The notes under the pieces are model-generated. The model was not told where the DNA came from, did not search any database, and saw only the letters and a list, made by a program, of their open reading frames with translations. Shown piece by piece: positions 1 through 64,000 of a stretch of DNA of 64,000 nt. The position numbers and the translations under genes were made by a program. Source of the stretch: Psammoneis japonica (lineage: Eukaryota); NCBI GenBank assembly GCA_008632985.1, contig QPGO01000075.1, forward strand, positions 188,517 through 252,516, written 5' to 3'. The stretch's first letter is position 1, and each line of letters opens with the position of its first letter.

Positions 1-1807
1 TACGACGTGAAACACGACGGTCGCCACAAGGCATGACTCGTAGCCGATGGGCACCTCACGGATGCACCCATCGACAGTGTCCACTCCGGAGCAGTCTCCC
101 TCCGTGGCCTTCGGCTGATGATTTTCCTGGCCGAACTCAACAAGTTGGAGACATGGGCCACCGACGTTGGCAATGCCTGCCTTGAAGCCACCACCAAGGA
201 GAAGCTCTACATTGTAGCCGGACCCGAATTTGGCAAACTCGAAGGACACATCCTTGTCATCCACAAGGCCCTGTGTGGGCTGCGCAGCTCCGGTCTCCGC
301 TGGCACGAGCGCTTCGCCGACTGCCTGCGAGCTGAAGGCTTCTTCCCCTGCCGTGCCGAACCCGACATTTGGATGCGCAGGAACGGCGACCACCATGAAT
401 GCATTGCCGTTTATGTGGATGACCTCGCCATTGCTGTGAAGGACCCTCAATCTTTCGTCGACACTCTCACGGAAAAGCACAAGTTCAAGCTCAAGGGCAC
501 GGGACCCATTGAGTTCCATCTGGGTTGCGACTTTTCCCGGGATCCCGACGGCACCTTGTGCCTGTCTCCGCGCAAGTACATCGAGCGCATGGTCGACAGC
601 TGCACCCGACTGTTTGGGGAGAAACCTGCCACCAACGCTCTGTCACCTCTGGAGAAGGGTGACCACCCCGAACTGGACACTTCCGAGCTGCTGGAGCCCG
701 ATGGCATTCACAAGTTCCAGTCTCTTGTTGGTTCACTCCAATGGGCAGTGTCCCTTGGTCGAATTGACATTGCCACGGCCGTCATGTCACTCTCTAGCTT
801 CCGAGCTGCACCCCGTCAAGGCCACTTGGATCGTGCCAAACGTGTCTGTGGGCACCTCTCCAAGATGCGACACGGCGCTCTCCGCGTTCGTATGGAAGAG
901 CCCGACTGTTCGGATCTCCCTGCTCCGGCCTGTGAATGGATGCATTCCGTGTGCGGTGAAGCAGAAGAGATGATCCCGAAGGACGCTCCACCACCCCTTG
1001 GCAAGTTCGTCACTGCCACCCACTACGTCGATGCAAACTTGTGCCATTGCATGCTCACCGGACGCTCTGTCATGGGAATGCTCCACTTCCTCAACAAATT
1101 CCCGGCTGATTGGTTCTCTAAGAAGCAAGCCACCGTGGAGACTGTGACCTGCGGGTCTGAATTTGTTGCCGCAAGGACTTGTGTCGAGCAGATTGTCGAC
1201 CTGCGCATCACCCTGCGCTGTCTTGGCGTCCCGATCCACAATGTCAGTTACATGTTCGGTGACAACAAGTCGGTTGTAGACAGTGCCACCATCCCGCACT
1301 CCAAGTTACACAAGCGACACACCGCACCATCGTTCCACCGTGTGCGCGAGGCAATTGCCTCTGGTTGCCTTGAGTTCCACTTCATCGAAGGCTCCCGCAA
1401 CCCTGCTGACATTCTCAGCAAACATTGGGGTTGCTCCCAAATCTGGGACCTTCTCCGCCCCCTCATGTTCTGGAACTTCATTCCATCCGAAGTCGAATCT
1501 GTTTCTGTGGCTCCTCAAGCAAACTGGGGAGTGACAAGATTTGAACAGGATTCAGGTGCGCGCGAAATGTCGCGCGCTGTTTAGTTTGCCGCGCACAGTT
1601 TTGTGTGCTTTAGTTCCGCACGTTTGCGCGCGATGCAGTTTGCTTTCGAGCCACAAGGCTCACAAGAACAACAACAGCAGCCCAATTGTACCGACTCACA
1701 CGTCTTTTGGCTCCTGCAGCGGTCTCTGAGCGGAGACTCATCTGCCATTTAGACAGCAGCAAGGAGTCATTGTTTGAATTCTTGCCATTTGCCTTCAATT
1801 TCTGTCA
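1..1807 (+). mobile_element. 3' part of a Ty1/copia (CoDi-like) LTR retrotransposon: RT, RNase H, polypurine tract and 3' LTR; inactivated
   Basis: Frame 1 reads YDVKHDGRHKA*LVADGH (TGA at 34-36 where Arg is expected), then copia RT motifs (KAL[C]GL, YVDD) and RNase H motifs (W.SKKQ..VE, DNKSVV, NPADILSK). Purine tract GGGGAG lies just before TG at 1532. Confidence 0.95.
1532..1807 (+). repeat. 3' LTR of the copia element
   Basis: Begins TGACAAGA directly after the purine tract and ends TCTGTCA, giving TGACA/TGTCA inverted termini. The 5' LTR is outside the window. Confidence 0.7.
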
Positions 1808-4800
1808 TTTGTGGTCATGAGGCAAAGGGGGAACAAGGAATCCACGTGACTAGACCCCTTGAAGGTGTGACACGATTTTGTGAAAATGTTCGGTTCTGAT
1901 TGGCTGAGGGGATCTGTGTGACGCAGTTTTTCAATCAGCTCCCCACGTGTTCTGTGGTGCAAATGTGCATGCACTGTTCTGGTGCAAACAAAAAATGTTG
2001 CATGCTCAGGTCGAGCTCCACAATCAATCTAAAATCATCTGCAACAATTGTGAGCTCCGCAGCTTTCAATGGTCTAAAATGGGCATTGGGAACGGCATCA
2101 GAAATGAGCCACAAAAGCAGCGGCTTTGTTGCCACTTAAGCAGCACATGAAGAACAGAGTCTCTCCTCTTCTGTGTTCTCTTTTTTTTCTCTTTTCTCTT
2201 CTTTCTTTTCCTTTTTGGTCTAAAATGTGCTCCAATGGCATGGTCTAAAAACCCATCCAGCACCATCATGCAAACAATCACAAGCACAACCAGGATGAGG
2301 TGCTCATGACAATCGGCACCACTCCTCACTGCTCGCTGACATTCTTCTCACCGGCAGTTGTCTCTCGAGGGAGGCATTGATGTTGAATGTTGAGGGCAGT
2401 CCAGCGCCAGTTCAGGATGTTTTGAAATCAGCCAAGGTTCGCCACTGCACCAATGCGCTCATTTCCAACATGTTGCCTCAACAAGGTTGTCAGTTTGGAG
2501 ACCCCAAGGGCAATGGGGCAGTGGCGACGGCTGTTTGCATGGACTGATCTACGCTGCGACAAACAATGTGAGCATCGAAGATAGTCAGACATGATTTTGA
2601 AAACAAAAGGACCCTTTTTCTTGAGCAAAGAGGAGTTGCAACAATGAGGGTGGGTCATGGGGACTGAAATGAATGGGGTGCTTGATGCCATGGGATCTCA
2701 AGTTTACAATCACGTTGGAAATGGGGTCTTTGCAAGCACTGGATTGACTCATGGTGGCATCATCCAACACTGCCAAACAACAGCTTAAACGCAGTGGTGT
2801 TGTCATGGAAGACAACACAGCAAGGCATCTCCTGAATGCATTCATCCTGCAGAAGAAGTTGCAGAGCACCACATTCAAGCAAATGAAGTGGAAAAAGAGG
2901 AAGACGAAAGTCACAAAAAGGCCAGACAATGAGAAGAAGAGATTCACAAATGAGGAGACAAATTGCGTGCTTTTGTTCAGGAAATGTTGGGGGACTTGTC
3001 ATCTGCTGGTGAGTTTGCAATTGCTTGCATTCAACTCATGTGTGTCCCAGCTTCCTGTTCTCTCATGTGTGCTGTGATTTGTTTTGAAGATGTCAAGATC
3101 CAGATGTCAAGGCTGAAATTGTTTGAGACAATGAAACAGGCGCTTCTCTCCAGTCTGACTTTGTCAAGTTTTCTGACCAGCAAACGTGTGTGTGGGGGCA
3201 TGCTTTTTAGGGAACAATGGGCTCATTGATGGCCTCCACACTGAGGTGGAAGTTTCACAGAGTGCAGCAAAAGTGTGGAACAAGTTTGCACAGTGAAATG
3301 AGAGCACCTGGAGGTGAAGCCACGACCCAATTAAAAGAGAAGCCATCCATGTTCTTTGCCAGAAAACATGATTCCATCAGCTGACATCTGCCAAGCAGTG
3401 GATGCCATTAACTGGCATCTGCCAAGCAGCAGTCATCATGTGCAGAAAGATGCCTCAAAGGGGGAGTTCATTGTTGACAGGGCTGACACTCAAATTGCAG
3501 TGCATGTGCGATTGATGATTGAGAGCCGCAGTCATCGGGCCACACAACCCGTTGTTGTGCATCGATCCATGCACGAATGAAAAAGTTGAAGTGTTCTCAA
3601 GCAACACATCTGAAGAAATCACTCCTTTCATCAAGAAAAGTCCAAGGCAAAGTTTCTGTCAAAAAGGGCCACCACAGGATCATGCCTGAGCTTGCACAGA
3701 AGTGGAAGTTTGCTGTCGACAGGGCAGATGCTTGAACCACAGATGCACGATTTAGAGCCATGCGTCATGGGGCCAGATGAACTTGTTGTGCATTGATCCA
3801 TGCACAGATGAAAATCAATGCATGAATGACGAAGTGCAATCTGAGGAAGCCACGCTTTTCATCAACAAAATCCAAGGGCAAAGATCATCGGAGGTCAACC
3901 ATTGCAAACCTGACTGTGTTTCACTTTGTTCCTGCTGCTGTGTTTTGTGACTTCTTGGAGAGTTGATCAAGCTGCAGCGACCCTGCATTTCTGCTTTTGG
4001 CTTCACTGGACCTTGTCTCGGATGTTGGACTCATTGTCCAGCACTTGATTGAGAAGCAGGAGGGAGGAGGATGGGGTGCATTTTTCATTGTCAGGTTTGC
4101 CTTTTGGTGCACACATCCATTCATTTGATTGACGCATGAATCCCTCTCTCTTTGTTGTGGCAAATCCCAGAAACAAGATGATTTGGAATGTGCTCTTAAT
4201 GTTGATTGTTGGTGTGGGTGTGGTGCATTGGGCACACCAGTTGGACTCGTTGCAACTTTCGAGAAGGTGTTGCGTCTTGCACCAGCTGTGCTTGATCCTC
4301 TCCTTGCACTTGGGTGCTTGAGTTCAACAGGAAAATGTGCCAGTCTTGTTGCGGAACATCTCTGTTGTTGTGCTGCGAGTGAACAGAAATTCATGTTGGC
4401 GCTTGTTCCCTCCCACTTTCTTGTTTGCCATGATGTGTTGATGACGGTCCTCGCTGGTGGACGTTGGAAGATTCAGCTTGTTGAATGGGAAGAAAAAACC
4501 AAGAAAGATTGACAAAGTGACTGCCTTTTGGAACCTTCACAGGTTGTTTCCCTGGTCATTGTTGAGGAACTCTTCGAGAATGTCGGCGGAGCACTCACGG
4601 CGATTGGACACTTCACACGGAATGTGGGGGTTCAGCCTTGACCACAATTTCCATCATCTTCACTGGCTTGTCAACAGTCGTTGAGACTGGCAAGTACATT
4701 GGAGACAGGCACAAGATTGAAGAAAGCAACAACAAAGAAGAAAACCAAAGCGATGACCTGTGAGGCTCTGTTCACAGAAATCTTGCATTCCGCTCAAATC

Positions 4801-5100
4801 TGACTCTGGATTGGGCTGTCCATGCTGTGTCTCTGCCACTGTGTTGCATGAGGTCATGACTTTCTGTTGGCACTCACAGCTCTGTCATGAATTGGTGTGG
4901 TCACAACTTGATCCCAAGCGGCTTGGGTGACTTTGACAAAGCCAGCCTCGGCAATGTGAAAGCTTTCCACAATGTCTCATGAAAGTTGGTCTTTAGAGAC
5001 TGTCTCTCTGGCCGGAGGATGATCTCGAACCCCATCACAATCCTAGTTCTCTGTAGAAGGGATGAATGTCTCTGTGCTGTATGAGTGCAATCAGCACATC
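1808..5100. other. Decayed repeat-derived tract, depleted of TpA and CpG
   Basis: Very few TA dinucleotides (survivors mostly TTAA, CTAA, TTAG), excess TG/CA, and no credible ORF. Confidence 0.7.
3460..3890 (+). repeat. Two diverged tandem units of ~240 bp
   Basis: gacagggc...gttgtgcat(c/t)gatccatgcac...tctga.gaa..cac....ttcatcaa.aaaa..ccaagg.caaag occurs twice. Boundaries are approximate. Confidence 0.6.
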
Positions 5101-5249
5101 TGCTCTCTACTAGAGTGCAACAGCAGAAAAATACTTCGAGAGCGGTACGAATGGAAGCCATGTTAGCACCGCGTGGTCGAATTTTTAGTCTTTCAGTCAC
5201 GAACACGGGAGTCAGTCACGAGTTCTTGTTGTCGCATTCATTCTCGGCC

Positions 5250-5936
5250 ATGGCGCTGTCGTCTCGTCGAATCTTGTCCCTAAACCGTGCATGGAGTGTG
5301 GTTGCTTTCATGGCGCTTCGAATATTGTGTAGCTCTGCGTTTGTACCAAGGGGGCTCGTGACTCCAAATCGAAGAAGCTATCTGACAACATCAACATACC
5401 GCGTGAATCCAAAATCACGCAAGACACATCAAACGTCTACGTGCCTCATGTCTACCAAAACAGCGGACGTTATTCCCCGTGCAGCTGTATCAGTTGTGGT
5501 ACGATGCGAAGTTGAGGAAGAACCCAAATATGTTCTGGTTCAGCGAGGCAAAGAACCCAATTATGGTATTTGGTCCTTACCTGGAGGCAAAATCGAGATT
5601 GGTGAAGCAACGATGGATGCCGCTCGACGAGAACTGCACGAAGAAACCTTACTGATGGAAGGCTTGAAATGGCACGACAGTCCGTTTCGTTCGAGTGATT
5701 CTATTCACAGAAAAGATGACAACGAGGTTTCATACCACTATGTCATTTCTCAATGCTTCTGCACAAGTTCCACGTTTAGCGAGCTCCACCCTTCCGATGA
5801 TGCTGCAGACGCAGCTTGGCTTACTCTGGAACAAATACGACAAAAGACAACAATGGGACACGTGACACCTGGTGTGGACGACGTGATTGCACATGCTGAG
5901 CGATTGTTTTCAAACGGAATGTTACCTTGTGACTAA
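5250..5936 (+). CDS. Nudix hydrolase, probably plastid-targeted
   Basis: Nudix box GGKIEIGEATMDAARRELHEET; signal peptide followed by SSAFVP (ASAFAP-like). Start at ATG 5250 is inferred. Confidence 0.9.
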   Translation: MALSSRRILSLNRAWSVVAFMALRILCSSAFVPRGLVTPNRRSYLTTSTYRVNPKSRKTHQTSTCLMSTKTADVIPRAAVSVVVRCEVEEEPKYVLVQRGKEPNYGIWSLPGGKIEIGEATMDAARRELHEETLLMEGLKWHDSPFRSSDSIHRKDDNEVSYHYVISQCFCTSSTFSELHPSDDAADAAWLTLEQIRQKTTMGHVTPGVDDVIAHAERLFSNGMLPCD

Positions 5937-5983
5937 CGATATAGAGAATGCAAGTGGACAACTTTGAAGCTACAGCGTTACTG

Positions 5984-7051
5984 TTATTCCAAAATAGTCA
6001 GCCCAGCCAACGAAGGATCACCAAGGACAGCAACCAGCAGACCATTGGTGCCGTACCACAAGAGTACGCCGCCTGTTAAAGGTGTTACCCACGGCGCGAT
6101 CTTTCCGTATACCGAATCTCCGCTACTGTCCTTGAGATTAGCGAGAGCTTGTCCGCCAGTTGCCGCAACCACCAGAAGCGGTGTCGAGTATCCAAGAGTG
6201 TAAATTAACAGGTACAATGTACCCAAAAGGGGATCTCGCGTATTTGCCACATAAGCCAAGATTGATGTCAAGACGGGAGTAGCACACGGCGAAGCCACCA
6301 GGGCTGATGAACCTCCGAGCAGAAATGTCCTAAGAAGTGATCCTCGTTCTTGTGCTTCTTCTTTGGATTTCATAATATTACCCTTGCCATCAATCAAGAT
6401 TTCACCATTCAAGTTGTTGCTATTGTTGTTTCCTAGCTCCAACGACGGCAACGGAAGATCCACCAAGTTGAGCAACTGTAATCCCATGGCCAAACACACT
6501 CCAGACGACAAAATTGCTACAGCCAATCCTCCGGGACCACTGTCGGCACTGGCTCCAAATACACCTCCCACCAAAGACGCAATCAAGCCAAGAGTACAAA
6601 AGACACTGGCCAATCCCGCCGCAAATGCAACGGTAGGAATGGTAGCTTGCTTGTCGGCTCGTTCACCTGCGGCAGTGGAAATGTACGACATTGTGATTGG
6701 TAACAGCCCCCAAACACAGGGAGAAACCGATGTCAAGAGACCTGCTCCATACATGATCGGCAAAGAAGTCAACGTCGACGATGGATCTTGTAGCGAGGTT
6801 GTGGCCAAGCTTGATGCCGCAGACTCTGCATTGTACAAGATTTGCTCCCAATCCATCGCGTTGAGTGCCGATATTCTCTTATCATGATTCGTTCTAACAT
6901 AACTTGCATGAAACGCTTTCCTTCTGTAGGCTGGCGAGACAAATGAATCGACAATCGCAAGATGCATGACAACAGCCACTATGATACAGAGAAATGTGCG
7001 ACGTGAAGATCGGCATGATGCGTGGCAGTTTCTGCGTGTCGGTCTCGACAT
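5984..7051 (-). CDS. ccdA: Cytochrome c biogenesis protein CcdA (DsbD transmembrane domain), plastid-targeted
   Basis: Redox Cys motifs AGLLTSVSPCV and ASPCATPVL, multiple hydrophobic helices, bipartite presequence (VDS-FVSP). Confidence 0.92.
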   Translation of the reverse strand: MSRPTRRNCHASCRSSRRTFLCIIVAVVMHLAIVDSFVSPAYRRKAFHASYVRTNHDKRISALNAMDWEQILYNAESAASSLATTSLQDPSSTLTSLPIMYGAGLLTSVSPCVWGLLPITMSYISTAAGERADKQATIPTVAFAAGLASVFCTLGLIASLVGGVFGASADSGPGGLAVAILSSGVCLAMGLQLLNLVDLPLPSLELGNNNSNNLNGEILIDGKGNIMKSKEEAQERGSLLRTFLLGGSSALVASPCATPVLTSILAYVANTRDPLLGTLYLLIYTLGYSTPLLVVAATGGQALANLKDSSGDSVYGKIAPWVTPLTGGVLLWYGTNGLLVAVLGDPSLAGLTILE

Positions 7052-7560
7052 TGATTCAGCGTGAGCTCTTGTCAGTTGTTTCTGCCTTATTCCACTCCCC
7101 TTTGTATCATAACAATAGCACTGGATAGATACTGCTTTGAATGGCAGAATTAAGGCGTCTTTCCCTCTCTCTGCTTTCTCTTTTCTCTCTCGCTTCTGCT
7201 CTCTTCATCTTTTTCACCGCACTTTCCCCGCGAAGCGATGAGTGAGTCAGTCGCGCGCGTTACGCGCAAAAAAGTCCATCCGACTTCGACTACTCCGACT
7301 GACTGTGACTGACTCACCCGCCAAAATTTGCGACGATGCGATCATCACAAAAATGTAGAAGAGTTCAACACGAGTAAAGGCCAACAACAGCCATACTTGG
7401 CATCATCTTTCAAAAGCGAGTGTGCCCCATAAAACGTTGCCTTGGGTAAACCACGGTACTTTACTTGATCTTCTTGTAACTTCTTTGCGTTTCTGAAACG
7501 AAACGAAAAGAATTGCTGCGGGTGTGGGACCACCAAACAAAGAACAAAAAGAAAACAAGA

Positions 7561-8496
7561 ATGAGGGTGTGTCAAATCGGATTTGCAGCGTTGGTTTCGC
7601 TGGCGTGCATGCCTTCTGCGACATCCTTCTCGCCAGTACCTATTAAGTCATCAAGAAACGGCTATACATTTCGCCATGAGCTATTCGCGACAGCAACGGA
7701 TTGTGTGGATGAGAGCCGTGTCGATGAAGCAACCATTTATTCGGGCGATCCCTCTCGAAAAGCGAGAAATTTGAATCCTCGAGAGGCGATTCGTTCGAGC
7801 AAGTTTTATACAGTCAATGGAGAGGAAACCAGTCTAGACAATCTCATTGGCGATCCTGACAGCAGTGGGATATCCATAGTGGTATTGCTACGAAGTTTTG
7901 GATGACCCTTGTGCCAGGAGCTTCTGCTGCAATACAGTCAACGCAGACAAGAGCTTCTGGCCAAGGGTATTGATTTGGTCATGATTTCGATTGGCAAACC
8001 CAATGTCGGACGGGAATTGTTGGATCACTTTGATTTGTTGCCAGACGGACAGGACTACCTCTTTGCCGACCCTGACAATGCAGTTCACAATGATTTGGAC
8101 GTGAATCGAGGCATTGCTACCTTGTTTGGGAAAATGTCAACTCCGTTGGCATTTCTAAAGCGATTTCAAAAGAAGGACGGTACTAAAGAATTGACCAAGG
8201 TGTTATCGAAATGGAGCAATGGTACGTGCTTGCGTGTGATTGGAGCAATTGCGTATTCTTGGCACATGTTTCTGACATGACGTATCTCACGCTGTGCCTG
8301 CCTATCTCTTTGTATATTAGCTGTTTACATTCCTCCCAAGCGTGGCCAGTCTACGATTCAAGGGGGGACGTTTCTTTTCGATGGACCAAATACAATCCTA
8401 GCTCACTTTGATGAGTCGGTCGCAGACCATGCCGATATCGATGAAGTGATTCAACTCGCCACGCAAAGGTTGGAATTGAAGCAGACGACAGAATAG
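7561..8496 (+). CDS. Peroxiredoxin-like (AhpC/TSA_2, SelU/PRXL2-type) selenoprotein; exons 7561-8221 and 8321-8496; TGA 7903-7905 read as Sec
   Basis: Reads VLLRSFG-TGA-PLCQE (UxxC) in frame. After GT-AG intron 8222-8320 the frame gives the family motif QGGTFLFDG...H.D....DH and stops at TAG 8494-8496. N-terminal signal peptide plus ATS-FSP. Confidence 0.88.
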
Positions 8497-8544
8497 AAGC
8501 CTGATCACTGATAGTACAATACACAGAGAGTTTGTTTCCTCTCT

Positions 8545-8600
8545 TGATAATGACGCTACTCAAGTCGGAGACCTCGTTCCTATTGTGTAGCTGACGCTAG
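8545..8600 (+). promoter_or_regulatory. Candidate SECIS element in the selenoprotein 3' UTR
   Basis: ATGAC (8550-8554), then stem GCTAC-t-CAA pairing with TTG-t-GTAGC, then TGAC (8592-8595): the kink-turn core geometry. Apical mini-stem GGA/TCC. No canonical apical AA and helix I is weak. Confidence 0.55.
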
Positions 8601-8705
8601 TTTCTTTGCATGGCAGAGGAATTCGAGAGGGAAACAATCACGGATGCGGATACTCTGGTTCCAGGCTTCAATTATAGTATGGCATTCTACTTTGTTGAAC
8701 CATTA

Positions 8706-8881
8706 TTGCGCAAGAAAATTAAAAGAGCTTGTCGTAAATTTAAATCTAGGGTGAGAATTTCGGTTTCCTGCTAGCGCAAAAATTTTTGGACCGTTTTTGC
8801 AAAAGAAAATTAAAAGAGCTTCTCGTAGGTTTAGATCGATTCTTTCCCTACTCTCTAGAGCGAGGGAATTTCGGTTTCCTG
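8706..8881 (+). repeat. Short imperfect direct duplication in intergenic DNA
   Basis: aagaaaattaaaagagctt.tcgta and gaatttcggtttcctg each occur twice. Confidence 0.7.
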
Positions 8882-9445
8882 AACGCCAGAATCATCATCA
8901 TCATGATAGGCGTGACGACAAGCAAACACGTCTGAGATCGAAAAACACGTGAGAATTCGCGCTCACGTATGCGCAAACAAAAAGATCTCATTGGCAGAAA
9001 TGAAACATCCACTCACGAAGCTCAAGGAAATTCTCAATCAAATCTTCATATATATCTTTGTAGATGACTATTACATATCTTTTTCTCAAACAGATGTGGC
9101 GATCCGAATCCAGCTGGTTCTGACCATGTCGTTGTGAACAGACGGCATCGACGCGTCTGCTTGTGTTGAATGACGCAAGTCAACTTGCTGATGGGTTTTC
9201 GTTGTTGGTGTGGGCATGATGTAGTAAAGAGAAGAAGTCGCCGTACGGAAAGCAAACTCTGACATCGCTGTTGCTAAAGCCTGTTTGTCTATTCGCTGAA
9301 CCTTTCATACTCTCTACTAGTAGAGTTCTCAACAATCAACATTTTTTTCTATTGAAATCATCAACTATTCTCTCTCTCTCTCTGTACAAAGAGGTCAATA
9401 CCTACAGTACTACTAACACTAAAGAGCATCTTCCACTAGCTTGGT

Positions 9446-10878
9446 TTACTTTCCAGAAACAGCATGAGCAATGTTCTCTCCAAGCTTCTTGACCATCTCG
9501 ACCGGTCCCGAATGCTTGGGATGGAATCCATAAAGCGGAAGACTGCCGGGTTCAGGCACTCGTGCCGGGTAGGTATCGACCGCATGAAGCTTGGACAAAC
9601 TGACCCCACACCTCTTAATCATGGACTCTTCTGCCTTGCGAATCCAGACACGCGGGTCGTAATTCTTCTTGTTTGGCTTGTCGGGTCCGTCGGGATTGCC
9701 AATCTGTCCCTGAAGATAGTCGTGCTTGGCGGCTTCAAATTCACGAAGACCGTCCCAGTAGGCCCACTGGGTGTCCGTGTCGATATTCATCTTGATGACA
9801 CCGTTCTTGACGGCCGTGGCGATTTCTTCATCGGTCGATCCCGATCCTCCGTGCATGACTAGGAAAATGGGCTTGTCGTTGTCCGACTTGAGTTGTTCCT
9901 TGGCATAGGCTTGGTGCTTGCCGAGACGCTCCGGCTGGAGCGTCACGTTGCCCGGCTTGTAGACACCGTGGACGTTACCAAAGGCGGCGGCAATGGAAAA
10001 CATGTTTCCAATCTTGCTGAGGCGGTCGTACACCGCATAGACTTGTTCGGGACTTGTGTAGAGTTTCTCCGGATCGACACTCTCGTTGTTGACGCCGTCT
10101 TCTTCTCCTCCCGTGATTCCAATCTCCATCTCGAGCCAGATCTTCATGGGAGCCATGCGCGTAAAGTACTGAGCGCAAATTTCAATATTCTCCTCGTCGG
10201 GTTCTTCCGAGAGATCCAACATGTGCGAAGAAAAGAGCGGCTCTCCATACTGCGCAAAGTACGCTTCGTCGGCTTGCATCATGCCGTCAAACCACGGGAG
10301 CAACTTTTTGGCACAGTGGTCCGAATGCAAAATGACGGGAACGCCATAGTAGGGAGCCACGGCACGGACGTGAAGCGCCATGGCCACCGCACCGGCTGCC
10401 GCAGCGTTGGGGTCCTTGCAGCCCTTGCCTGTGAAAAACGCAGCGCCGCCGTTGGAGACCTGAATTATCACGGCAGAGTTGTTGTCGCGGGCGGCTTGCA
10501 AGACGGCATTGCACGTGGAGGAACTGAGTTTTGAGAGAGAGAGAGAGAGAGCAGTGGGTGAGATGAGCATCTTCTTCAAACTCCTTCTGAAGAATCTTTT
10601 GCAGACAGAGAATTTCGCATATATCCCGACAACAATCCGACTTACCTGGTGCAGTTGAAGGCAGGAAGAGCATATCCGTGTTCGCGAGCATGACTTAGGA
10701 GTTTGACAACATCGTCTCCGGTGATTACACCTGGGGGAACATCGCAGGGGTTACCATGGTTGGAAAAAGAAGGTTGGAGTCGTGTTGTTGCACTTGTGGT
10801 GTCGTCGGGCACACGTTCTTTTTTTGTGGTGTTCTCGTCAACGACAGCGAAAAAATCTTTTCTCGCTTGCGGGAGCAT
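9446..10878 (-). CDS. fba: Class II fructose-bisphosphate aldolase; intron 10524-10645
   Basis: Motifs HSDHC, EMEIG, FGNVHGVYK, HGGSG, KMNIDTD. Splicing restores GVITGDD...PAFNCTSSSTCNAVL. Start codon is uncertain and no plastid presequence is evident. Confidence 0.95.
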
Positions 10879-11284
10879 GGACTTTGGTTCAAAGTAAGCT
10901 AAATTGTCGATACGTAAAATTTGTACTGATTGTATGTATGACGCCAGAGAAAGGATTCTTCAGTATTAAATTCATGTACAAGCTACGTCAGTATCGAATC
11001 TGCGTGGCATCTACGACTGCCTACAAACTTCCAAAACTTGGGTTTCGAGTTCTGAGGAGCGCGAGTCGCCTATCTGTTCCTCGTCCGTCTATCGATCAAC
11101 ATCATCTCGGCCGCTCATTCTTTTGACACAACATGACACATGACGCATCAACATGACCACCATGACGACGACGACGACGAGATGAGATTGAGCTTTGCCT
11201 TGTTCGAACAACGTGGGAGTGCAAAGACATGCAAGACCTACCTTGAATCTTTTTTAAGTTTTGAGAAACATCAAGAAATTCTCC

Positions 11285-14200
11285 ATGACGTACCGATACT
11301 TATTCTTTTGTTGTGTCCTGCTGTTGCCTGTGAATGTTCGTCAGGCAACCAGTCGGCCTGCTGACTTTGGATTAACTTCACCGCAAACAAAAGACTCCCA
11401 CAAGTCTTAATTTTGGATGTCGACAATACTCTGTATTGCGAAAAAGAAATCAAAACCCGTGCTGGACGAGGAATTGAAGAGCAAATTGTAAACAACATCC
11501 ACTCCTTTTGTCAACGACAACTCAACATGTCGCCGCAACAAGCTGACCAACTGCATTACGAATATGGGTCTACCATTGAAGGCATTCGACACGTGCTACT
11601 CGAAAACAAACGGGCTACGCCGCAGCAAGTATATCAGTTGCTGGACGACTTTTATCGCGAAGTTTATCAAGACATTGACGTGTCTCCTCTACTCGTCGAC
11701 ACGTCGTTATCCGACACTAAAAAGGATGATACGGGATATAGCCACGTTGCGCAAAATCAAGTCTTGGCCAATTTATTGCGCTCGGCTCCATGTCCCATTT
11801 ATCTAGCATCCAACTCGCCAAGTTGGCACGTGGCACGAGTGTTGCGGGCGTTGGGATTGGCAGATGTGGCCTTTGCCGGTTGGCTCACGCCCGACACGAT
11901 GAACAACAGGATGCTTCAACTCCCTATCCCACAAAGGTGCTTTCCAACGTCTTTTATCATCATTGTTGCAAAAACACAAAATTTGATTCTCTTGGATGAT
12001 TCCAAAGTAAATATCGAGCGTGCTGAACGGGATGCTGGAATCAAGGCATTTTCGTGTCGCACAACCATATTTCATTACACAGGCCTTGAGCATGGCATTG
12101 GGGCATTTAAACCAGAATACGACTTTTCAGAGATACGATACTTGGCTGCCAAAAATCTGGTGGATGCCCGTTCCATGCACGCCCCAACGTGGAACGAGGT
12201 TGGCAAGCGCTTGGCAGACATTCTCAAGACTACAGGCGATACAACACTTTGCATTGCCGATGTTGGCGCGGGCATTTTGTCCATGCTGGAACTCATTGTA
12301 ATGGGTCATGTGGAAACAAATCCGTCCTTGATTACTCTGTTGAAGCGTCAAGACGCAAACTATCGACAGCTGCACTACTATGCATATGAACCAAATCTTG
12401 GTCTGTTTCGTGGTTGTCACGCAACGCTTACTCGTTTGGGTTTTGTGAGCCAACCCACACAAAATGCTAACGCGGATACAGCACCAAATGCTGGCAGTGA
12501 ATACATTTATCGACATGAAACCATGGATATCACGGTTCATTTGCGAATGAGAGATTTTACGATAGATTCCGTAAAACAGGAGACATCTCCACCACACCTT
12601 ATTGTGGGATGCTGCTTTGCAGACCTCATGGACCCGAACAAGCTGGTCCAGTCAATGCATGATTTTCTTGATACTTGCAAAGGACCAACATCCAACATAC
12701 ACCACGAGGTCTTGGTGTACTTTCCAATTACATTTACCGGGACGACGCAGTTTGTTCCCCCACGGCCATTTGACTACAAAGAGTCAACCACACGGCGGCG
12801 GGGCGGATCCATTCCGTCGGATACGGCTGCCTTTACCATGTACGCACATGCTCTCCAACACAAGTATGGACACAATTTGAATCCCGACGCGTTGATTTCC
12901 GCAATGCAAAGCCATGGCAATCATCTCTTGGCGCGCGGTGCCTCGGATTGGGAGATTGACCCGATTCACAACTCGTACTTTTGGAATACAATGATGTACT
13001 TTTTCGGCACAGTTGCAGCACCCGAATTGGCAACCCATGGATGGGACGCAGCGGGCTGGGTCAATCGTGCCAGAGATACTCCAGCAGCTATCAGAGTGTC
13101 CAATGTGGACTTGCTCTTTGGTTTGAAGCCTTGGAAAGGCTCGTCGTGGGAAGCAACTATGGAGAGTGATGCGCCAACGTTGCACAATGAGGGATTCCTC
13201 AACATTCGAGAAATTCAATTTGTAGCTCCTTATCAAGTTACGACGAGAACCAAAACCGTAGATACACGGCATGCAGCGCACTTGGGACCGAACCAAGTGG
13301 AAGGTGAGCCGACTTTTCTTCCTTTACAATGCGTAAAAGTATTCTCTTCCCTCATGTTGCCGCTTACACTTTGTTTAAAGTCACGTCGGTTTGCTCGCTT
13401 ATCAGTTCTGGAACAGAGCTAAAGATATTCAAGGGTCTTTTTGATGATGCCGCTTTGGATGTCAACATCAAAGGCATGGATAAGGAGCGCATGGCGTATC
13501 CGCTTACCTATGGCTACAGTCTTGTCGGGCGAGTTACTCGTTGTGGAACAGACGTAAAGGACGCAGAAAGGTTGTTGGACAAGCTCGTCTTTTGTTTTTC
13601 TCCGCATGCGTCGCATACCATTGTAGACCGGGACAGCCTGCACGTGGTTCCGGATGGAATTGATGCACGGGATGCAATATTCATGCCGTCCGTCGAAACG
13701 GCATTGTCGCTTGTACATGATGCACACGTTCGTGTCGGCGAAAACGTGGCTGTCTTTGGACAAGGTCTTATCGGTCTACTCGTGACTTGTATCCTGAGCA
13801 AGCAGACTATCTCTGCTGCCTTTTGTAGTTCTTGCTTTGGGAGGTTCGGGACTACTACCGTGTTCGATACAATACCGGCACGACTAGCTGCTGCGAGTGT
13901 TATGGGCGCATCGGAAGCTCTAATGGCACAGGATGTAGATAAGGCAGGTCCGTTTGACGTGACCATTGAGGTGAGTGGTAACTCACGGGCACTACAGTCT
14001 GCAATCGATCACACTTCATCGGGAGGAAGAGTAATTGTCGGCTCTTGGTACGGAAATGCCGATGTTCGCTTGAAACTGGGAATCGACTTTCACAGAAGCC
14101 ACAAAACCATCATTACGTCCCAGGTTAGTGAACTTCGCGCAGAGTTGATGGGTCTATGGACAAAGCAACGACGCTTCAGCCTTGCTTGGGAACTAGTGAG

Positions 14201-14327
14201 GCAGATTCGCCCGTCACGGCTCGTCACGAAAACAGTGACACTTGACAATGTCCAAGAAGCATATGAGCTGTTGGAGAGAGGCTCAGAGATTGCGGTATGT
14301 TTTGACTACACTAGTCGATATTCGTAA
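11285..14327 (+). CDS. Fusion of HAD pyrimidine-5'-nucleotidase-like, SAM methyltransferase-like and MDR alcohol-dehydrogenase-like domains; intron 13304-13380; apparent frameshifts in the 5' part
   Basis: HAD motifs DVDNTLY, YGSTIEG, LLDDS; methyltransferase-like DVGAG; MDR motifs ISSGTE, YGYS.VG, GQGLIG, IEVSG, GSWYG. The GT-AG intron joins ORF 11413 to ORF 13329 in frame. The 5' end is uncertain. Confidence 0.75.
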
Positions 14328-14365
14328 TCGATCCGCTACCTTAGACTTTAGTGAAGGATTTTTTT

Positions 14366-17300
14366 CTAGTTGAACACTCGTCGGCGGTAGAAAAGAACAT
14401 ATGCAGCCGGAGAAACAACACCAAGACCGTCATTTCCGCCCCTCCCGTCTCCAACGCTCCTGACGCTGGAATCATCAAACAATGCCCAATCTTGGGACAT
14501 TCCCTCTTCATTCCATTTACGAGCAAAGGCTGTGTAATGCCCAAAGCCCAATCTACCATAGTGGTTTGTGACAGCAAACAAGTCATAAATTGCCGGGACA
14601 CCATCTTCCACGACGAAAACCGGCGACTGTTGATCGCCCGCATCATTGTTGGTCTCCGACTTTGCTCCATTTACCACTGACGCAGACGCGCAGTGCTTGC
14701 TCATGTCTAACCCGTCCAAAGGAAAGTCGACAAGTGTATCTAGCTTGTCTCGCCTCAGTGCGTGTTTGAATTCAAACCGCTTCAGGTGCACTACCAATAT
14801 GTTTGGTAACCTCCAGAGTTGCATCGTTTTCATGGCCCGCACGTGTTCCTTGCACCGTGAGCAATACCACTTGTTGTGTTCGTCTAGCCGTTCAGGTCTC
14901 GTAAATGTGTCAAAACACTGCTCAATAGTGACTCCCTTGAAACCATTCATCATCGCCCGTTGCTTCTGTAGTCCTTGAAGAAGACTTGGGTGGTCCACAA
15001 AAGACAAGAAACGATCTGTACTGTAGAAGGAAGGAACGTGACGATAAGGCTCTTCGCCATCGTCTTGTGTCAAAGTCGGGTCGCGCCACTCAAGATGCAC
15101 AAAAAGAAACCGATCCGTACAGTCCCTTCCAAGAAACTTGGTTAGTTTCTCATTCGAGTTTCGAGGGAGGATAGATGCGGCATCCACCACGCCCATGGTC
15201 TCCATGTTGGATAAGTCGTCGTCCAAGAAGACGGGACGAGGAATTCCAGCATTATCAACGATTCGAATTTTCAAAAGACTTTGCAAATACGCCTCGTATT
15301 GGATTTCTTCAGCTTGGCCCTCACCGTTTTGGACGCGATCCTCATCATCCCCAATCAAAAGTCGAACTTGATTCCACAAGCTATCCCAAACCTGCTTACA
15401 AGAAAGGTCCGCATCGAATGACGCTACAAACGGAAATCCAAACAATCCTCTGGTATCTTCAACTTCGTCGTCATCCAACTCGTCGTCAATCGTTGGCGGA
15501 GCTTTCAATGCGCTACAAGTGTTGGATGCAATAGTGTGGATAGATGTATTTGTGTAAGGATCAACTTCGTACGCTGTAAGGACGTCCGTTGCCTTGACCG
15601 TGGAAAGCGGTTTGCCATCCTGCAGAATTTCATACACAGCGTGCTCATAGATGTCACAGATTATGAAATGCGTAACGGGGATCCGGCAAAGCTCCGACAA
15701 GGCTCGTTTCAAATCACCCACAAACTCATTGCGCCGAACTGTAACACCGTATCGAGTTGGTATTTTGTTCATGGACGCTCCGCCAGCCGAAGGAACCACC
15801 AATACTGGTATCGTTCGTGTCGAGGTGTGAAACTGCGGTATTTCCAAACTGACATGATTGAAGGCGTCAAAGGAGACAGAAACGCGGTTGCAGTGTGGAC
15901 AGACGCAGGTGCTTTTGAACTGCCCGTAAAAAGTGTCCATTACAAGGCTATCGTTGCGAAGTCTGTGTGCATCCCAAGCTTCCGCGCCGGCAATAGCCAT
16001 GCACGGACCAACCGTGGGCATTTCCACGTAAGGAGCCTTGCGGATTCGATTCAAATCTTCGTGCAAGCCATCCAACAGATACGCCAAGAACTCCTGCGCA
16101 TCATGCTGCGAACAGCCCGCAAAACGAGGAGCAAACATGGCAATCGCACGCTTGAGAACAGTAGGGCTTGTACTAGAATGACCTCCTTTAGCCTGAGCCA
16201 TCCAAATATCCTTCATGACAACGTTGTAGGCATGAGCCAACTTGCCGCCAGTACCAAGGGGATTGGTTGCGTTGAGGTCAGCTTTGAATCCATTCGATAG
16301 AAAGTGTCTCGTCAGAGGGGTAGCGTGGCTCAGACATTGAAGCGCCGAGTTCATAAAGCACGTATTGCCCAAATTGTTTAGTCCCACTCTACCCAAGTTT
16401 TCACTCTCAAGCTCGTGAACTTCCATTGCAATCTGCTGCTGTTCTTTTGAAATGGTTTTGCAAGCAAATTTATGATATGGCCAATGACTCTCCTGGCAAG
16501 AACGGTCGCAATAATGTGCTGCAAGGCACCGAGTACACCGCGACTGGACATTGGGCTTGTGACAAGCGCAACAAATGTATCCTCCGAGCCGTCCTGGTGA
16601 CGGTCGTGTATGCTCTGGGTAAAGCTTAAGCACCGCCTTTGGTGGATCCATTACTACTTTGACTCGTCGACAAATACTGGGCGTGATCTCCCCATACCAG
16701 ACGCGGAGTGCAAAATATATTTCCCTCGGCAACAACTCATAGTGATAACCGCGGACCAAGTTCGGCAACAGCAACAAAGAACATCCGTCCTTGTCTTCTC
16801 GTTTCTGTTGTTGTAGGTGTGGATTCCATTGTAGATAATAGTCATGCAGAGGACTTGTCGTAGCTGTTTGAGGCGGTGAAACAAGCAAACAAGAATTATC
16901 AATCACGTCCGGTGGTCCAGATGTAGCCTGGGTCACTAATTCATCATCATCGCTATCGTCCGAATCGCTACTCGAAGTTGGCGAAGTTGATCTTGCTTTC
17001 TTCTTCTTCTCCATGATTGGTATAGAGGATCCTGGCGGTAACAATTTGAGAATCTCGATTTGTCGCTTTTCGATTGTAGTGGAGTTTTGCATGTAAAAGA
17101 AATCAGTGTAATGGCACCAGGCCATCCACCAAGACCAATTCAACAAAAAGAACGCTTCTCCGTCCAAAGGCATACCACGAGCTCCGTTCTTTTTCTTTTC
17201 TTGTATCTGTCGTGCCATAAAGAGTCGAAAAACATCTTTTCGTTGCTGTTGCGGGGGTGGCGGGCCACTGGTCCTATCCTGAGGAGGAGGTTCAGTTGCT

Positions 17301-18035
17301 TCTGTCTCTGTCTGCTTCTGTAGCTTCTCTTTGGTATTTTTCATTCGCTGCAAAGCCTCGCTCGCGGCCTTCATCATTTTTTGTTCAGCAGGGTTAGGCT
17401 TGGACGGAAAGAGCGATAAACATTGCTCCACATCGGAAACAGCTTGATCCAGGGCATTTTGATCATCTGCATGGCTGCTTAGTCCCTCTCTCGCAAGTCC
17501 TCGGCGATACCAAACTAGCAAAGACAAACGCGGAAAGGTAGCAAAAGTCCATAATGAGCAGAACAGAATCCGTGAAGCCCCACTACCGTTGACCTATCTT
17601 TAACGCACCTTTTGTATTGGTAGAGTCTAGTTGAATGGCCTTAGTACACTCCTCCTGAGCGTCAGAGTAGGCTTCAGATTTCAGAAGCACCATTGCACGA
17701 TTCGCGCGTAGCGCCACCTCTAGATCTATTGATTCCTGTCCGTTATCTGGTAGCCCTTCGAGATAATCCAGTCCCTCCTTATAGATTCGAGCAGCCTTCA
17801 CGTATTCTCTAGCAGCAAACAGAGAATTCCCTTGCGTTTTCAGTTGCACAGCCTGCTCAAACGAGGCGGAAGGACTGACTTTGTTGCTCTGTTCCTTTTC
17901 GTGAAGAGGAGCTGAATACCCGCTCTCTCCGTTTGGTGCATGACTACCTTCTACTCTATGAGGATCATCTGTCGTTGTGCCCTCCATAGTTGGTGTTGAA
18001 TCGTCACCGTTCTCGGACAACGGAGCAGCCGCCAT
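14366..18035 (-). CDS. Ubiquitin-specific protease (USP4/11/15-like) with TPR, DUSP-like and MYND zinc-finger regions; intron 17515-17608
   Basis: Cys box GLNNLGNTCFMNS, QHDAQEF, His box NHYG...GHYTA; MYND C..C...C..C....YC...CQ..HW..HK..C. Splicing gives TPR NTKVWYRRG. Confidence 0.93.
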
Positions 18036-18251
18036 GGTCAAAAGATGCTGTCTTGCTTCGTGCTTTGCTATGGAGTCCGCCCGACGCCCGACGTCCAACC
18101 AATCGAAATATGTCTGGTCATTGTGCGTAGAAGCTAACAGGAAACATATACGGCGCGATTTCATATGCGCGTCTCAGATTTGGCGGGAAGAGCGTCAGTC
18201 CAGCTGTCCGTCAAAGTTACACGTCATCATCGATCCAGATCTCTGTTCTCA

Positions 18252-19273
18252 CAGAAAACGTATCCGCGGTATGGTAAGTGCGGTCATAACGGCGGTATGG
18301 AAATCTGATTGGATAAACGACGTCAGCTAAGAACCTTGTTGTTCACAATAAGTAATGATGACATCATCCTTACCCCACCATCCGCCCCGCCGCCCGGCCC
18401 GCCGCGGCGATTTGCTGCGCCCCAACTTCAAAAGAAACATTCACAAGTCCCCAAGTAGAGACTCAGCAAGACAACACATCATGATACACAAACAGCACGA
18501 ACCGCCCATGACAGCGGAAACTTTCGGACTGGTGAGCATAAAAATAACACCATTAGAACCGCAGCCTTTTTGTTAGTACGTGTGTGTTGTTTCTCTTTTT
18601 GTTCAATGCAAGTGCGACCCTCTTATGGGACAATTTCAGCAACTTTCAAGTAGAAAGTTTTGCACCGTCCTTCTCGGGCCATTTAGTCTACCTACTCTAA
18701 AATCATTTAACTTACAAATAACAACGTTCAATCCGTCATATCTAAATTACTCTGTACGGTAGTTTCTGTGTCATAGAGATCTAGTTTAGGGACCTTATGC
18801 ATGGCTTTCTGCGATGCATGAAAAGACCTGAAAATTCTTGCAATACAACAGGTCCATTTTGGAAAGAAGTACGCAAAGCGTTACCATTTCCTTCTCTACA
18901 CATATCATAACTACTTCATATTATCGATTGATCCTACTTCTATAGTCATAAAGTCGAGAGAAGTTGTCCAAAACAACCACACACCGCCATGGCGACTTGC
19001 ACAAAAAACCACATCTCATTCCACGTACAATTCTACGTGCGGCTTCAGTACTTGACGTGATGCGTCTGATGCGAGTGCTACGTGCGCGTAGGGCCATCCG
19101 CCGGTACGTACTCGTACCTACATATCGGTAGATACTGGCAGGTGCTTGGGGGCAATAATGATGTCAACATTACTTATTGTGAAGAATAAAGTTCATAGCT
19201 GACGTCGTTTGTCCAATCAGATTTCCATACCGCCGTTATGACCGCACTTACCATACCGCAGATACGTTTTCTG
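18252..19273. mobile_element. Non-autonomous MITE, Mutator-like
   Basis: Terminal inverted repeats of ~120 bp (CAGAAAACGTATC.GCGGTATGGTAAGTGCGG...); 9-bp target duplication ctgttctca (18243-18251) and cttttctca (19274-19282); no coding capacity. Confidence 0.88.
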
Positions 19274-20320
19274 CTTTTCTCACTTTTTTCTTTAGGCACC
19301 ATGGCAACTGCAAGCGACGATAGCAAGGATGATGAACCGGATCTTCTAACGCCACCACCCAACTCAGATGTTTGCGATCGCCGTCTTAGTCGAGCGGCCC
19401 GATCGATTCTTGAACGACATGCTCTGCCAATATTAAATCATTACATGAGTGACAAAGTCGCTGCATCAGGCGAGACCAAATCCTTGGCTCCCGAGTCGTT
19501 GTGGCAGGCACTGCAAAACACTATTCAAAATCACGACACGTGCGTGCTCAACCCGACCCGAGATGTCTATTTTCTGTCGGAACGGAACGCCTTGTTGCAA
19601 GCTCAAGTGGGAGTACCTCGACAACAACTTCCGTATCGTAGCGTTAATTCCTTGTACGAGTGCGGGATTTGCGGAAAGACATTTTTGACGCGCTACTATC
19701 TGGATTTACACATGGATAGCAAGCACCACGATGAGTCAAGCAACAATAGCATATGTCCAGCCACGTCGTGGTGTCAATTTCTTGGTGGAGATGCGTCTTG
19801 CCGTGTTCAAGCCTTGGAGGACGAGCCTTATTACGGTCGCGGCAGTGGTGGACATGGTGTTGACTCGGCTAAGGTACGACGGGAATGGACCAAACAGCAC
19901 CAGGCACAACAGCATAGATGTCGGCAAGAAGATATGATTCTATCGCAACAACAGTGTCGACAAGTCATGCACCAATGTTTCTCGCACGATTTGGCAACAG
20001 ATCTTGTCCAAGCCCTCTGCGACGGCTTGACTTGCCAAGATGCTCTGCATCGACTCATGGGAGAAGCACACAGACATGTTCATTCATGGAGGCACGAATG
20101 GAATGTGAATCATCGTGTCAATTTCGGTTGGAGTGGCACGTTTGTCATTGCTTTCCTAGTCGTCTATTACTCATTCAGGGCGTTTTCAAAGCTTTACAAA
20201 TCACGCGCCCAAGCCAACACTGCCCACAAGTCATTTGCATCCGGGAAATCTACGCGCAAGAAACAAGAACAACTTAGGTTGAAACTTAAGAAAACCAGAA
20301 GCAAGAGTAAAGTGCAATAA
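19238..20320 (+). CDS. Cys-rich protein with one C2H2 zinc finger and a C-terminal transmembrane helix
   Basis: CGICGKTF....YLDLHMDSKH finger, many further Cys, hydrophobic TFVIAFLVVYYSF. Start is 19238 (inside the MITE TIR) or 19301. Confidence 0.8.
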   Translation: MTALTIPQIRFLLFSLFSLGTMATASDDSKDDEPDLLTPPPNSDVCDRRLSRAARSILERHALPILNHYMSDKVAASGETKSLAPESLWQALQNTIQNHDTCVLNPTRDVYFLSERNALLQAQVGVPRQQLPYRSVNSLYECGICGKTFLTRYYLDLHMDSKHHDESSNNSICPATSWCQFLGGDASCRVQALEDEPYYGRGSGGHGVDSAKVRREWTKQHQAQQHRCRQEDMILSQQQCRQVMHQCFSHDLATDLVQALCDGLTCQDALHRLMGEAHRHVHSWRHEWNVNHRVNFGWSGTFVIAFLVVYYSFRAFSKLYKSRAQANTAHKSFASGKSTRKKQEQLRLKLKKTRSKSKVQ

Positions 20321-33400: not shown

Positions 33401-33519
33401 GTGCAACGCATGAAAAAAATTGCTCCATTGCAGCTCAGCACTGCAAGACCCTGCCCAGAGCTGGAACAATGTCAGGAGAAGCAGCCGATCCTTCTGAGCC
33501 ACAGCCTCTGCACCACTGG

Positions 33520-33800
33520 TGACCAGCCAGATGATGCCACTTGAGACTGGCCAGATGACACCACTTGAGACCAGCTCTCTGGGTGATGCCAATTGAGGCC
33601 AGACATGCACTGATTGAGAGGACACACCACTTGAGACTGGCTGGATGATGCCGCTTGAGACCAGATGTTTGCCACCACTTGAGATGACACGCCACTTGAG
33701 ACTGGCTGGACAACGCCATTCAACACTGGCGCTGGGCAATGCCAGCTGCTTGATGCCAGCCAGATGACACCATTTGAGACCAGATGTTTGCTGCTGGAGA
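33520..33800. repeat. Irregular minisatellite built on gatgacaccacttgagac(c/t)
   Basis: The core (cca)cttgagac recurs several times with variable, related spacing sequence. Confidence 0.8.
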
Positions 33801-63850: not shown

Positions 63851-64000
63851 AAAACACACCTGACAGCAGTGCTTCTTTTGGATGACAGGGAAGAAAAACT
63901 TGTGTTGGTCACAAATGAGGGACATTTTGCATTCCCCATGGAGCCTTTTCTCAATGTTGCCCCTTTGTGTGCTGCTGCCATTTCCATTCCGGCGTGCCAC

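Follow-up and report, generated by a model that had tools for sequence, protein, structure and literature searches.

Why would a retrotransposon protein carry cysteine or histidine at positions where its relatives carry tyrosine? This question is raised by the start of a 64,000-nucleotide (64-kb) stretch of Psammoneis japonica DNA (assembly GCA_008632985.1, contig QPGO01000075.1, positions 188,517 to 252,516, forward strand), which in its full length is referred to here as the window. Its first 1,584 nucleotides encode part of a copia-type pol protein. An earlier reading of the sequence (the original prediction) attributed the unusual residues to loss of the dinucleotide TA, acting early and quickly on a young insertion. 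Comparison with homologues, with other copies in the same organism, and with related loci from metagenomes makes it probable that a DNA-level process targeted at transposon DNA changes TpA to TpG or CpA. The copia element is one victim among all of the transposon islands in the window.

Tyrosine loss in a copia retrotransposon

Nucleotides 1 to 1584 (plus strand, frame 1) are the 3' part of a Ty1/copia pol gene, from reverse transcriptase through ribonuclease H (RNase H) to the C-terminus, truncated by the start of the window. The 515-residue product matched RVT_2 (Pfam PF07727; E value, 3.8e-20) and was collinear with 66 homologues through the C-terminus; the RNase H part was assigned from this alignment, not from Pfam. 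Homologues of the product number in the thousands, with no more than 70% identity, and one is named from the diatom Cylindrotheca fusiformis. The reading frame is free of stops from 37 to 1581 and ends in a natural stop codon at 1582 to 1584. As originally proposed, the frame lacks indels, in that the alignment with the 66 homologues revealed no frameshift up to about residue 480. A premature in-frame TGA at 34 to 36 had been overlooked. The family consensus has arginine at this codon, base 34 is C in other copies from the same organism, and the TGA is private to the window copy.

Conserved columns were defined from the consensus of the 66 aligned homologues at thresholds of 80% and 60%. At the columns conserved to at least 80%, tyrosine was changed in 12 of 16 cases (8 Cys, 3 His, and 1 Phe), versus 20 changes at 273 non-tyrosine columns (Fisher p 5.5e-10), and 11 of the 12 changed tyrosines had become TGY or CAY codons. 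The 60% threshold gave 20 tyrosine columns (9 changed to Cys, 4 to His, 2 to Phe, and 5 kept), with 13 TGY or CAY codons. The seven motifs that had drawn attention to the element, DSV[H]SG, GNA[C]LEA, KAL[C]GL, H[H]E[C]IAV, T[C]GSEF, LR[C]LG, and WG[C]S, were all present, and the consensus residue is tyrosine at each bracketed position. Tyrosine made up only 0.97% of the fragment compared with a homologue median of 4.51%, and cysteine made up 3.69% compared with 1.19%. Apart from its tyrosines the protein is almost intact, because its deviation at the other conserved columns (7.3%) is near the homologue median (5.3%). Several further substitutions fit a change of TA to CA or TG, namely V19A (GCA), L431P (CCA), I348M (ATG), and I231V (GTT after T), and I44V was the only candidate A-to-G change outside TpA.

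The direction of change was established with 80 related loci taken from metagenome contigs and scored at 16 tyrosine columns. In 77 of them only 0 to 2 of these columns had cysteine or histidine, and the observed-to-expected ratio (o/e) of TA was 0.48 to 1.14. Because 77 of the 80 relatives kept tyrosine, the family ancestor had TAY at these positions and the change was from TAY to TGY or CAY. This is the direction that the original prediction had assigned, and the cysteines and histidines are not residues that its relatives share. The possibility that they were inherited as family residues was rejected on the same count.

Loss of TA in the window copy is pronounced. Its TA density is 7.8 per kb, and the 77 normal relatives have a median density of 48.9 per kb; over nucleotides 1 to 1584 the TpA o/e is 0.19 and the CpG o/e is 0.84. 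The claim that TA was lost quickly relative to CpG was borne out by codon counts: 13 of 20 tyrosine codons were lost, compared with 1 of 22 CGN arginine codons (p 3.9e-5), which corresponds to a per-site rate of TA loss about 14 times that of CpG. The accompanying claim that CpG is largely intact holds in the sense that CpG is abundant, but CpG is not untouched. T286M and T346M (ATG), A370V (GTG), and the TGA at 34 to 36 fit a change of CpG to TpG, and judging from their codons the three substitutions are presumed CpG losses. In addition, other copies read CG at seven sites (bases 48, 63, 354, 604, 893, 1238, and 1684) that are TG or CA in the window copy. The window copy already bears a stop codon and several private CpG losses; that the insertion is young is a conjecture of the original prediction. 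At arginine-consensus columns between 37 and 1581, CGN codons were found in 21 of 22 kept arginines.

Both strands were affected. His120 and Cys122 lie 6 nt apart, so that both polarities are interleaved within one copy, in keeping with the earlier argument that changes of both polarities speak against editing of a single strand of RNA or complementary DNA (cDNA).

Other copies of the family in the same organism were compared over nucleotides 1 to 20000 of the window with contigs from four coded runs (X1 to X4) of one sample in one study. Single-copy DNA had an X1 depth of about 59. For bases 1 to 2001, contigs that were at least 90% alike gave summed depths of 72,000 to 197,000, values that are not copy numbers but that point to a very abundant family. 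The window copy differed from the other copies mostly by transitions; in X1 the differences comprised 30 A>G, 46 T>C, 26 C>T, 25 G>A, and 37 transversions. At Tyr16, 64% of the other-copy depth read T (TAC). At Tyr120 the window copy has CAT and the other copies have TGT (98% of depth), and at Leu431 the window copy has CCA and the others have CTG (99% of depth). At base 891 it is the window copy that retains TA, and 97.5% of the other-copy depth reads CA. The finding that a single ancestral TA gave rise to different products in different copies demonstrates that at least part of the change postdates the separation of the copies, and it takes the place of the comparison of 5' and 3' LTRs (long terminal repeats) that the original prediction had proposed. 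As far as can be read from these sequences, the changes are DNA level and at least partly copy specific. Some of them may have been inherited through amplification of mutated copies or may be convergent through local sequence context.

Nucleotides 1585 to 1807 (plus strand) form the noncoding tail of the element and probably hold the 3' long terminal repeat (LTR). The high-copy repeat stops at 1807 with the sequence TGTCA, and this boundary therefore ends in CA. The summed depth fell from about 197,000 in the bin at 1335 to 2001 to 111 in the bin at 2002 to 2668, and loose contig ends of X2, X3, and X4 lie at 1807. The integrase side and the 5' LTR position are upstream of the window start, and no second copy of the element was present within the 64-kb window. 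X2 had a depth of 0 over 1 to 1334, which was not counted as evidence on expression.

Three of the 80 metagenome loci had the same signature as the window copy: L042 (12 cysteines or histidines at the tyrosine columns; TA o/e, 0.01), L066 (13; TA o/e, 0.15), and L033 (5, all histidine; TA o/e, 0.26). The choice between cysteine and histidine in these loci varies column by column. They belong to separate sublineages and have 64 to 73% nucleotide identity to their nearest relatives. Their different sublineages and different cysteine and histidine patterns indicate that hypermutation arose independently several times. A protein, P0029, shows the same replacement of tyrosine by cysteine and histidine, and it and the three loci derive from data sets other than that of the window. 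Over the four hypermutated copia copies, including the one in the window, the ratio of cysteine to histidine was 25:23, and in all four CpG was much better preserved than TpA. In the closest unmutated relative (L001, 75% protein identity), the query matched twice on an 8-kb contig, at 1 to 569 and at 6593 to 8022, which suggests two elements, tandem or nested.

TpA-poor islands and their unmutated neighbors

Dinucleotides were counted in 500-bp bins across the window, and three TpA-poor transposon islands were found that together account for about 31 kb. Island A (1808 to 4990) flanks the copia element, has 1 to 5 TA per 500 bp and low CpG, and contains no recognizable gene. Island B (31250 to 39100) is the most decayed of the three, with 0 to 4 TA and 1 to 9 CG per 500 bp. 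Island C extends from 43480 to the window end at 64000 and, depending on the subblock, has 0 to 7 TA and 1 to 29 CpG per 500 bp. The region from 5000 to 31000, which contains host genes, provides the contrast, with 10 to 36 TA per 500 bp and a CpG o/e of about 1. Genic bins throughout held 10 to 36 TA and island bins held 0 to 8, the sole higher island bin (11 TA, at 50001 to 50500) being occupied by a foldback element described below.

The o/e values of the islands, with copia excluded, were 0.06 for TA, 1.73 for CA, 1.73 for TG, and 0.38 for CG, compared with 0.56, 1.20, 1.18, and 1.01, respectively, in genic DNA. The TA density was 4.6 per kb in the islands versus 38 per kb in genic DNA, and base composition was the same in both. 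The edges of the islands are sharper than 500 bp and lie at about 4994, at 31290 to 31390, at 39117, and at 43314. For example, TA is absent from 38500 to 39116 and then occurs once every 15 to 120 bp. The flanks within the islands have near-single-copy depth, whereas the depth of the copia family is very high.

The islands also revealed the order of events. CpG is near normal (17 to 37 per 500 bp) in the copia element and at 43.5 to 47 kb, 53.5 to 54.5 kb, and 56 to 60.5 kb, and it is almost nil at 31.5 to 39 kb and 61 to 64 kb. The CpG-rich island subblocks hold only 0 to 5 TA per 500 bp. Because TA is gone from CpG-rich and CpG-poor subblocks alike, TpA was lost first and CpG later. X1 contigs, at a depth of about 59, had 0 to 1 differences from island A over 1902 to 3933. 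This agreement, together with the hypermutated loci from other sources, demonstrates that the TpA-poor pattern is not an assembly artifact. In island B a 101-bp unit is present twice at 36594 to 36795 with 99% identity, a recent local duplication within old mutated DNA.

Among 148 open reading frames (ORFs) of the islands, Pfam searches yielded one hAT dimerization match and otherwise only subthreshold matches, and a search of a smaller set of island frames read through their stops gave no additional ones. The hAT match (PF05699; 22.2 bits; E value, 1.3e-4) lies in island C, at 47595 to 48191 (plus strand), in the remnant of the C-terminus of a hAT-like transposase. This remnant had 203 library matches with an E value of 1e-3 or less, at the C-termini of proteins of 620 to 710 aa. 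Five of the 10 homologues that were scanned matched PF05699 at that E value, and 2 of these reached the curated cutoff. At conserved columns the remnant has changes from Y to H (CAC), V to A (GCA), L to P (CCA), and T to M (ATG), and only 2 TA are left in its 597 bp. Because a cut-and-paste element does not pass through RNA or cDNA, the presence of the same signature in it points to mutation of the DNA in place. Also in island C, at 56256 to 57656 (plus strand), is an ORF for an unclassified, weakly Plavaka-like transposon protein with 3 homologues; its 1,401 bp contain 3 TA and 56 CG. Two or more homologues agreed on tyrosine at 7 columns, and it was changed at all 7, twice to cysteine, but this alignment is poor and the support from it is weak.

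Two repeats in the window were not mutated. A foldback element of about 460 bp with nested inverted repeats (arms of 22, 35, and 66 nt) lies inside island C at 49811 to 50274 and keeps 17 TA (49850 to 50272) and normal CpG. An element of about 1 kb that resembles a miniature inverted-repeat transposable element (MITE) lies between host genes at 18252 to 19273 and has 125-nt terminal inverted repeats that are 92% complementary. Its summed depth was 640 to 1270, compared with about 59 for single-copy DNA, and it has a normal TpA content of 20 to 36 per 500 bp. These elements may have escaped because they are very recent, because short elements are immune, or because the process is episodic.

Origin of the TpA loss

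The most probable account of these observations is as follows. The copia fragment belongs to an abundant Ty1/copia retrotransposon family, of which it is a dead member inside a transposon island. A DNA-level process turns TpA into TpG or CpA by A:T-to-G:C transitions on either strand, and it outpaces the ordinary decay of methylated CpG by far. In coding sequence, a change of the sense-strand A converts TAY to TGY and a change of the antisense A converts TAY to CAY. The process is restricted to transposon-derived DNA and spares adjacent host genes, and the hAT-like remnant and independent copia copies on metagenome contigs have been affected as well.

A process of this description has been reported for the chlorarachniophyte Bigelowiella natans. 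According to the main text of a preprint by Mettrop et al. (10.64898/2026.01.13.699255), TpA-specific hypermutation affects integrated DNA of nucleocytoplasmic large DNA viruses (NCLDV) and virophages. In mutation accumulation lines two integrated viral regions mutated at about 6e-7 per site per generation, a rate raised about 1000-fold; the changes were almost only A>G and T>C, all on TpA, and were found in 11 of 15 lines. Its authors propose an ADAT2-like DNA adenine deaminase. The likeness to the diatom window is considerable: only TpA is affected, with TpG or CpA as the product depending on the strand; silent foreign-derived DNA lies beside normally mutating host DNA; 1-kb windows with a deficit of TpA and an excess of CpA+TpG are clustered and carry reverse transcriptase and DDE domains; and the bias is toward G+C. 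With the thresholds of that study, a rough transfer because they come from another genome, 31 of 64 1-kb windows were TpA poor and CpA+TpG rich, in 4 clusters. By this analogy the diatom process would be of the same kind as the hypermutation that strikes integrated viral DNA in B. natans at TpA only, and its chemistry may be the deamination of adenine in a 5'-TA context by an enzyme of the ADAT/TadA-like type.

There are also differences. B. natans belongs to the Rhizaria, whereas the host here is a diatom (Stramenopila), and the targets seen in it comprise an LTR retrotransposon, the remnant of a hAT-like element, and unclassified repeats rather than giant-virus inserts. Erosion is more advanced here, with a Rho TpA of 0.06 compared with the 0.45 that the preprint gives for an NCLDV region, and TpA loss is accompanied by a slower CpG decay. 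Mutation is deduced from comparison here and was measured de novo there. The main text of the preprint mentions no diatom, stramenopile, or retrotransposon. No report of TpA hypermutation in diatoms was found in the literature searched, which included available text of PMC2806351, PMC9998398, PMC12730594, and 10.1101/2025.10.24.684338. Maumus et al. (PMC2806351) described the CoDi elements, which the window copy resembles in its Ty1/copia pol, its C. fusiformis relative, and its diatom-like host genes. The word dinucleotide is absent from the text of that article, in which mutation and transitions occur once each, in other contexts. Within this literature the signature had been reported once, in one chlorarachniophyte, and a diatom with its transposons would be a further case. 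The diatom case adds an advanced stage of the process, an LTR retrotransposon and a DNA transposon remnant as targets, and a protein footprint in which tyrosine becomes cysteine or histidine. It suggests a wide distribution of the process across the SAR supergroup (Stramenopila, Alveolata, and Rhizaria), where it would help to shape the repeat landscape of one major group of primary producers.

A bolder proposal, which we regard as plausible but somewhat short of an even chance, is that diatoms have an active, targeted defense that rewrites TpA to TpG or CpA in newly arrived transposons, one element at a time and more quickly than methyl-CpG decays, and that this is the same system that mutates viral inserts in a rhizarian alga. 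If so, it would be an ancient, SAR-wide counterpart of the repeat-induced point mutation (RIP) of fungi with the opposite chemistry (A:T to G:C), and its driver would probably be a DNA-acting ADAT/TadA-like adenine deaminase that prefers ATA/TAT. The process shares with RIP in ascomycete fungi the exclusive use of transitions, inactivation of transposons, action on DNA in place and on both strands, and sharp-edged blocks. Unlike it, RIP changes C:G to T:A, mostly at CpA, and thereby raises TpA and lowers CpA and TpG. TpA/ApT was 0.22 in copia and 0.07 in the islands, and (CpA+TpG)/(ApC+GpT) was 1.38 and 1.90, respectively; with the RIP index thresholds as a reference, canonical RIP was rejected because both indices are opposite to its effect. 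RIP targets duplications only, and on this trait the window gives a mixed picture, with a very high summed depth of the copia family, an unmutated, multicopy MITE-like element, and near-single-copy island flanks. According to the available text of PMC9998398, the diatom methyltransferase DNMT4 has a relative in RID, the RIP enzyme of fungi, and is of unknown function.

The sequence context of the surviving TA provides a lead toward an ATA/TAT preference of the process. Compared with genic DNA, the 153 TA that survive in the islands are enriched in TTAA, CTAA/TTAG, and CTAG, and ATAT, ATAC/GTAT, and GTAC are almost absent. For a stricter baseline, one coding region was compared between the four hypermutated copia copies and the 77 normal ones. 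On this baseline TA survival was 0.08 for RTAY, 0.17 for mixed flanks, and 0.20 for YTAR (R, purine; Y, pyrimidine), and survival of TAT was 0.063 compared with about 0.19 for TAC, TAA, and TAG. A model in which RTAY is mutable and YTAR is resistant was not adopted as a result, because it is strong against the genic baseline and a mere trend against the copia baseline.

Several points weigh against a DNA-level TpA change targeted at transposons. The direction of the change, its dinucleotide specificity, its occurrence on both strands, its regional confinement, the loss of TpA before CpG, and the differences between copies were all observed by comparing sequences, and none of the mutations was seen de novo. 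The nearest relative of the copia copy has 72% DNA and 75% protein identity, so that changes can be polarized at conserved amino acids only. The G+C content of the window copy is 57%, compared with a median of 47.5% in its relatives, an excess beyond what TA loss accounts for; the active copia lineage may already have been shaped at silent sites by the same pressure. One product (TG) makes up 98 to 99% of the other-copy depth at two TA-derived sites. The site readings of other copies cover 40 of 170 variant rows, and an unspecified share of the cysteines and histidines may be common to those copies. The targeting rule is also at issue, since the unmutated MITE-like and foldback elements indicate that neither position in an island nor repetition is sufficient for mutation. 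Against the copia baseline, flanking bases have a weak effect (chi-square p 0.08; 43 TA survive), the choice between cysteine and histidine is independent of the preceding base (p 0.56), and the deaminase is purely something that we infer.

It is possible, though unlikely, that the pattern reflects a slow, passive regional bias instead, in which repair bias or oxidized thymine erodes TpA in methylated, silent chromatin and the copia element is drifting to the local equilibrium. T:G mispairs might be overcorrected to C:G, in the way that has been proposed for the depletion of CTAG by very-short-patch repair in Escherichia coli, or a TET/JBP-type enzyme might make 5-hydroxymethyluracil or 5-formyluracil, which mispairs with G. 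Such a bias would be in accord with the depletion of TpA and CpG in the same blocks, both ending as CA or TG, with the somewhat low TA o/e (0.56) of genic DNA itself, and with the CpG methylation of diatom transposons described in the available text of PMC2806351 and PMC9998398. It is difficult to reconcile with bins that have only 0 to 5 TA where CpG is near normal, with the approximately 14-fold rate per site, and with the sharp edges and the unmutated foldback within island C. According to the preprint main text, only 11 of 15 B. natans lines had the process switched on, and its authors read this as regulation (10.64898/2026.01.13.699255). Ordinary deamination of methyl-CpG accounts for the TGA at 34 to 36, the T-to-M and A-to-V changes, and the low CpG of older subblocks, but it cannot yield a loss of TpA that is about 14 times faster per site.

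Editing during retrotransposition is less probable still. Adenosines that follow U would be deaminated in RNA or in single-stranded cDNA in each cycle, so that copies are born mutated and changes accumulate along the lineage. The summed depth of the family, three orders of magnitude over single-copy depth, would be consistent with this, as would the sharing of one product at two sites by nearly all other copies and the exclusive occurrence of histidine products in L033 (5 H and 0 C). RNA deaminases of the ADAR and ADAT kind favor a 5' U, according to the preprint main text (10.64898/2026.01.13.699255). However, a single copy has cysteine and histidine products only 6 nt apart and interleaved, and the noncoding flanks and the hAT-like remnant are equally depleted. 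TAG and TAA survive best, contrary to the 3' G preference of ADARs. ADAR-type RNA hyperediting was rejected on these same grounds, and APOBEC-type C-to-U editing was rejected because it changes the wrong base. The host deaminases ADAR and APOBEC3 of animals do provide a parallel, in that they load retroelement copies with transitions and ADAR favors a 5' U, but their substrate is RNA or a single strand of cDNA, and they leave clusters of single polarity in retrocopied sequence only. ADARs are known from animals only. The same signature is present in single-copy integrated DNA of B. natans, as described in the main text of 10.64898/2026.01.13.699255.

That cysteine and histidine are normal for the family, or that they are base-calling or sequencing artifacts at modified bases, is very improbable: modified bases can give systematic miscalls in long-read assemblies, and single-base indels relative to X1 contigs indicate that the window probably is such an assembly, but tyrosine is kept in 77 of 80 relatives, the TA-poor sequence is matched by X1 contigs (depth, about 59), and the pattern recurs in three metagenome contigs and in P0029, which come from other sources.

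A targeted, DNA-level TpA change would have practical consequences for annotation. With TAA and TAG scarce, the islands abound in long frames without stops, on either strand (among them many of the 95 ORFs that reach 130 aa or more), and DNA that lacks these stops fills with false ORFs that gene finders would call as genes. Transposons in the islands escape domain searches, and ages estimated from their overall divergence would be badly off. Replacement of tyrosine by cysteine or histidine at conserved columns offers a simple way to screen other genomes for the process.

Host genes and assembly of the window

The genic regions encode NUDIX, DsbD/CcdA, class II aldolase, UCH-MYND protease, and Sec6 proteins, among others, and are intron poor. 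The class II aldolase is 77 to 84% identical to Triceratium, Odontella, Attheya, Thalassionema, and Cylindrotheca sequences, which identifies the host as a diatom. A tRNA scan revealed no tRNA genes in the 64-kb window.

X1 contigs agreed with the genes apart from single-base indels. Between 10746 and 11899, X1 has six single extra bases (after 10746, 10782, 10903, 11270, 11396, and 11899), which probably represent long-read deletion errors in the window. Such errors could break gene models, for example, that of the ORF at 11365 to 13422. X2 contigs skip 8221 to 8319 and 13301 to 13377, both with GT..AG ends; X2 thus behaves like RNA, and the skipped segments are introns of host genes. The X2 depth reached its maximum of about 1000 at the class II aldolase gene.

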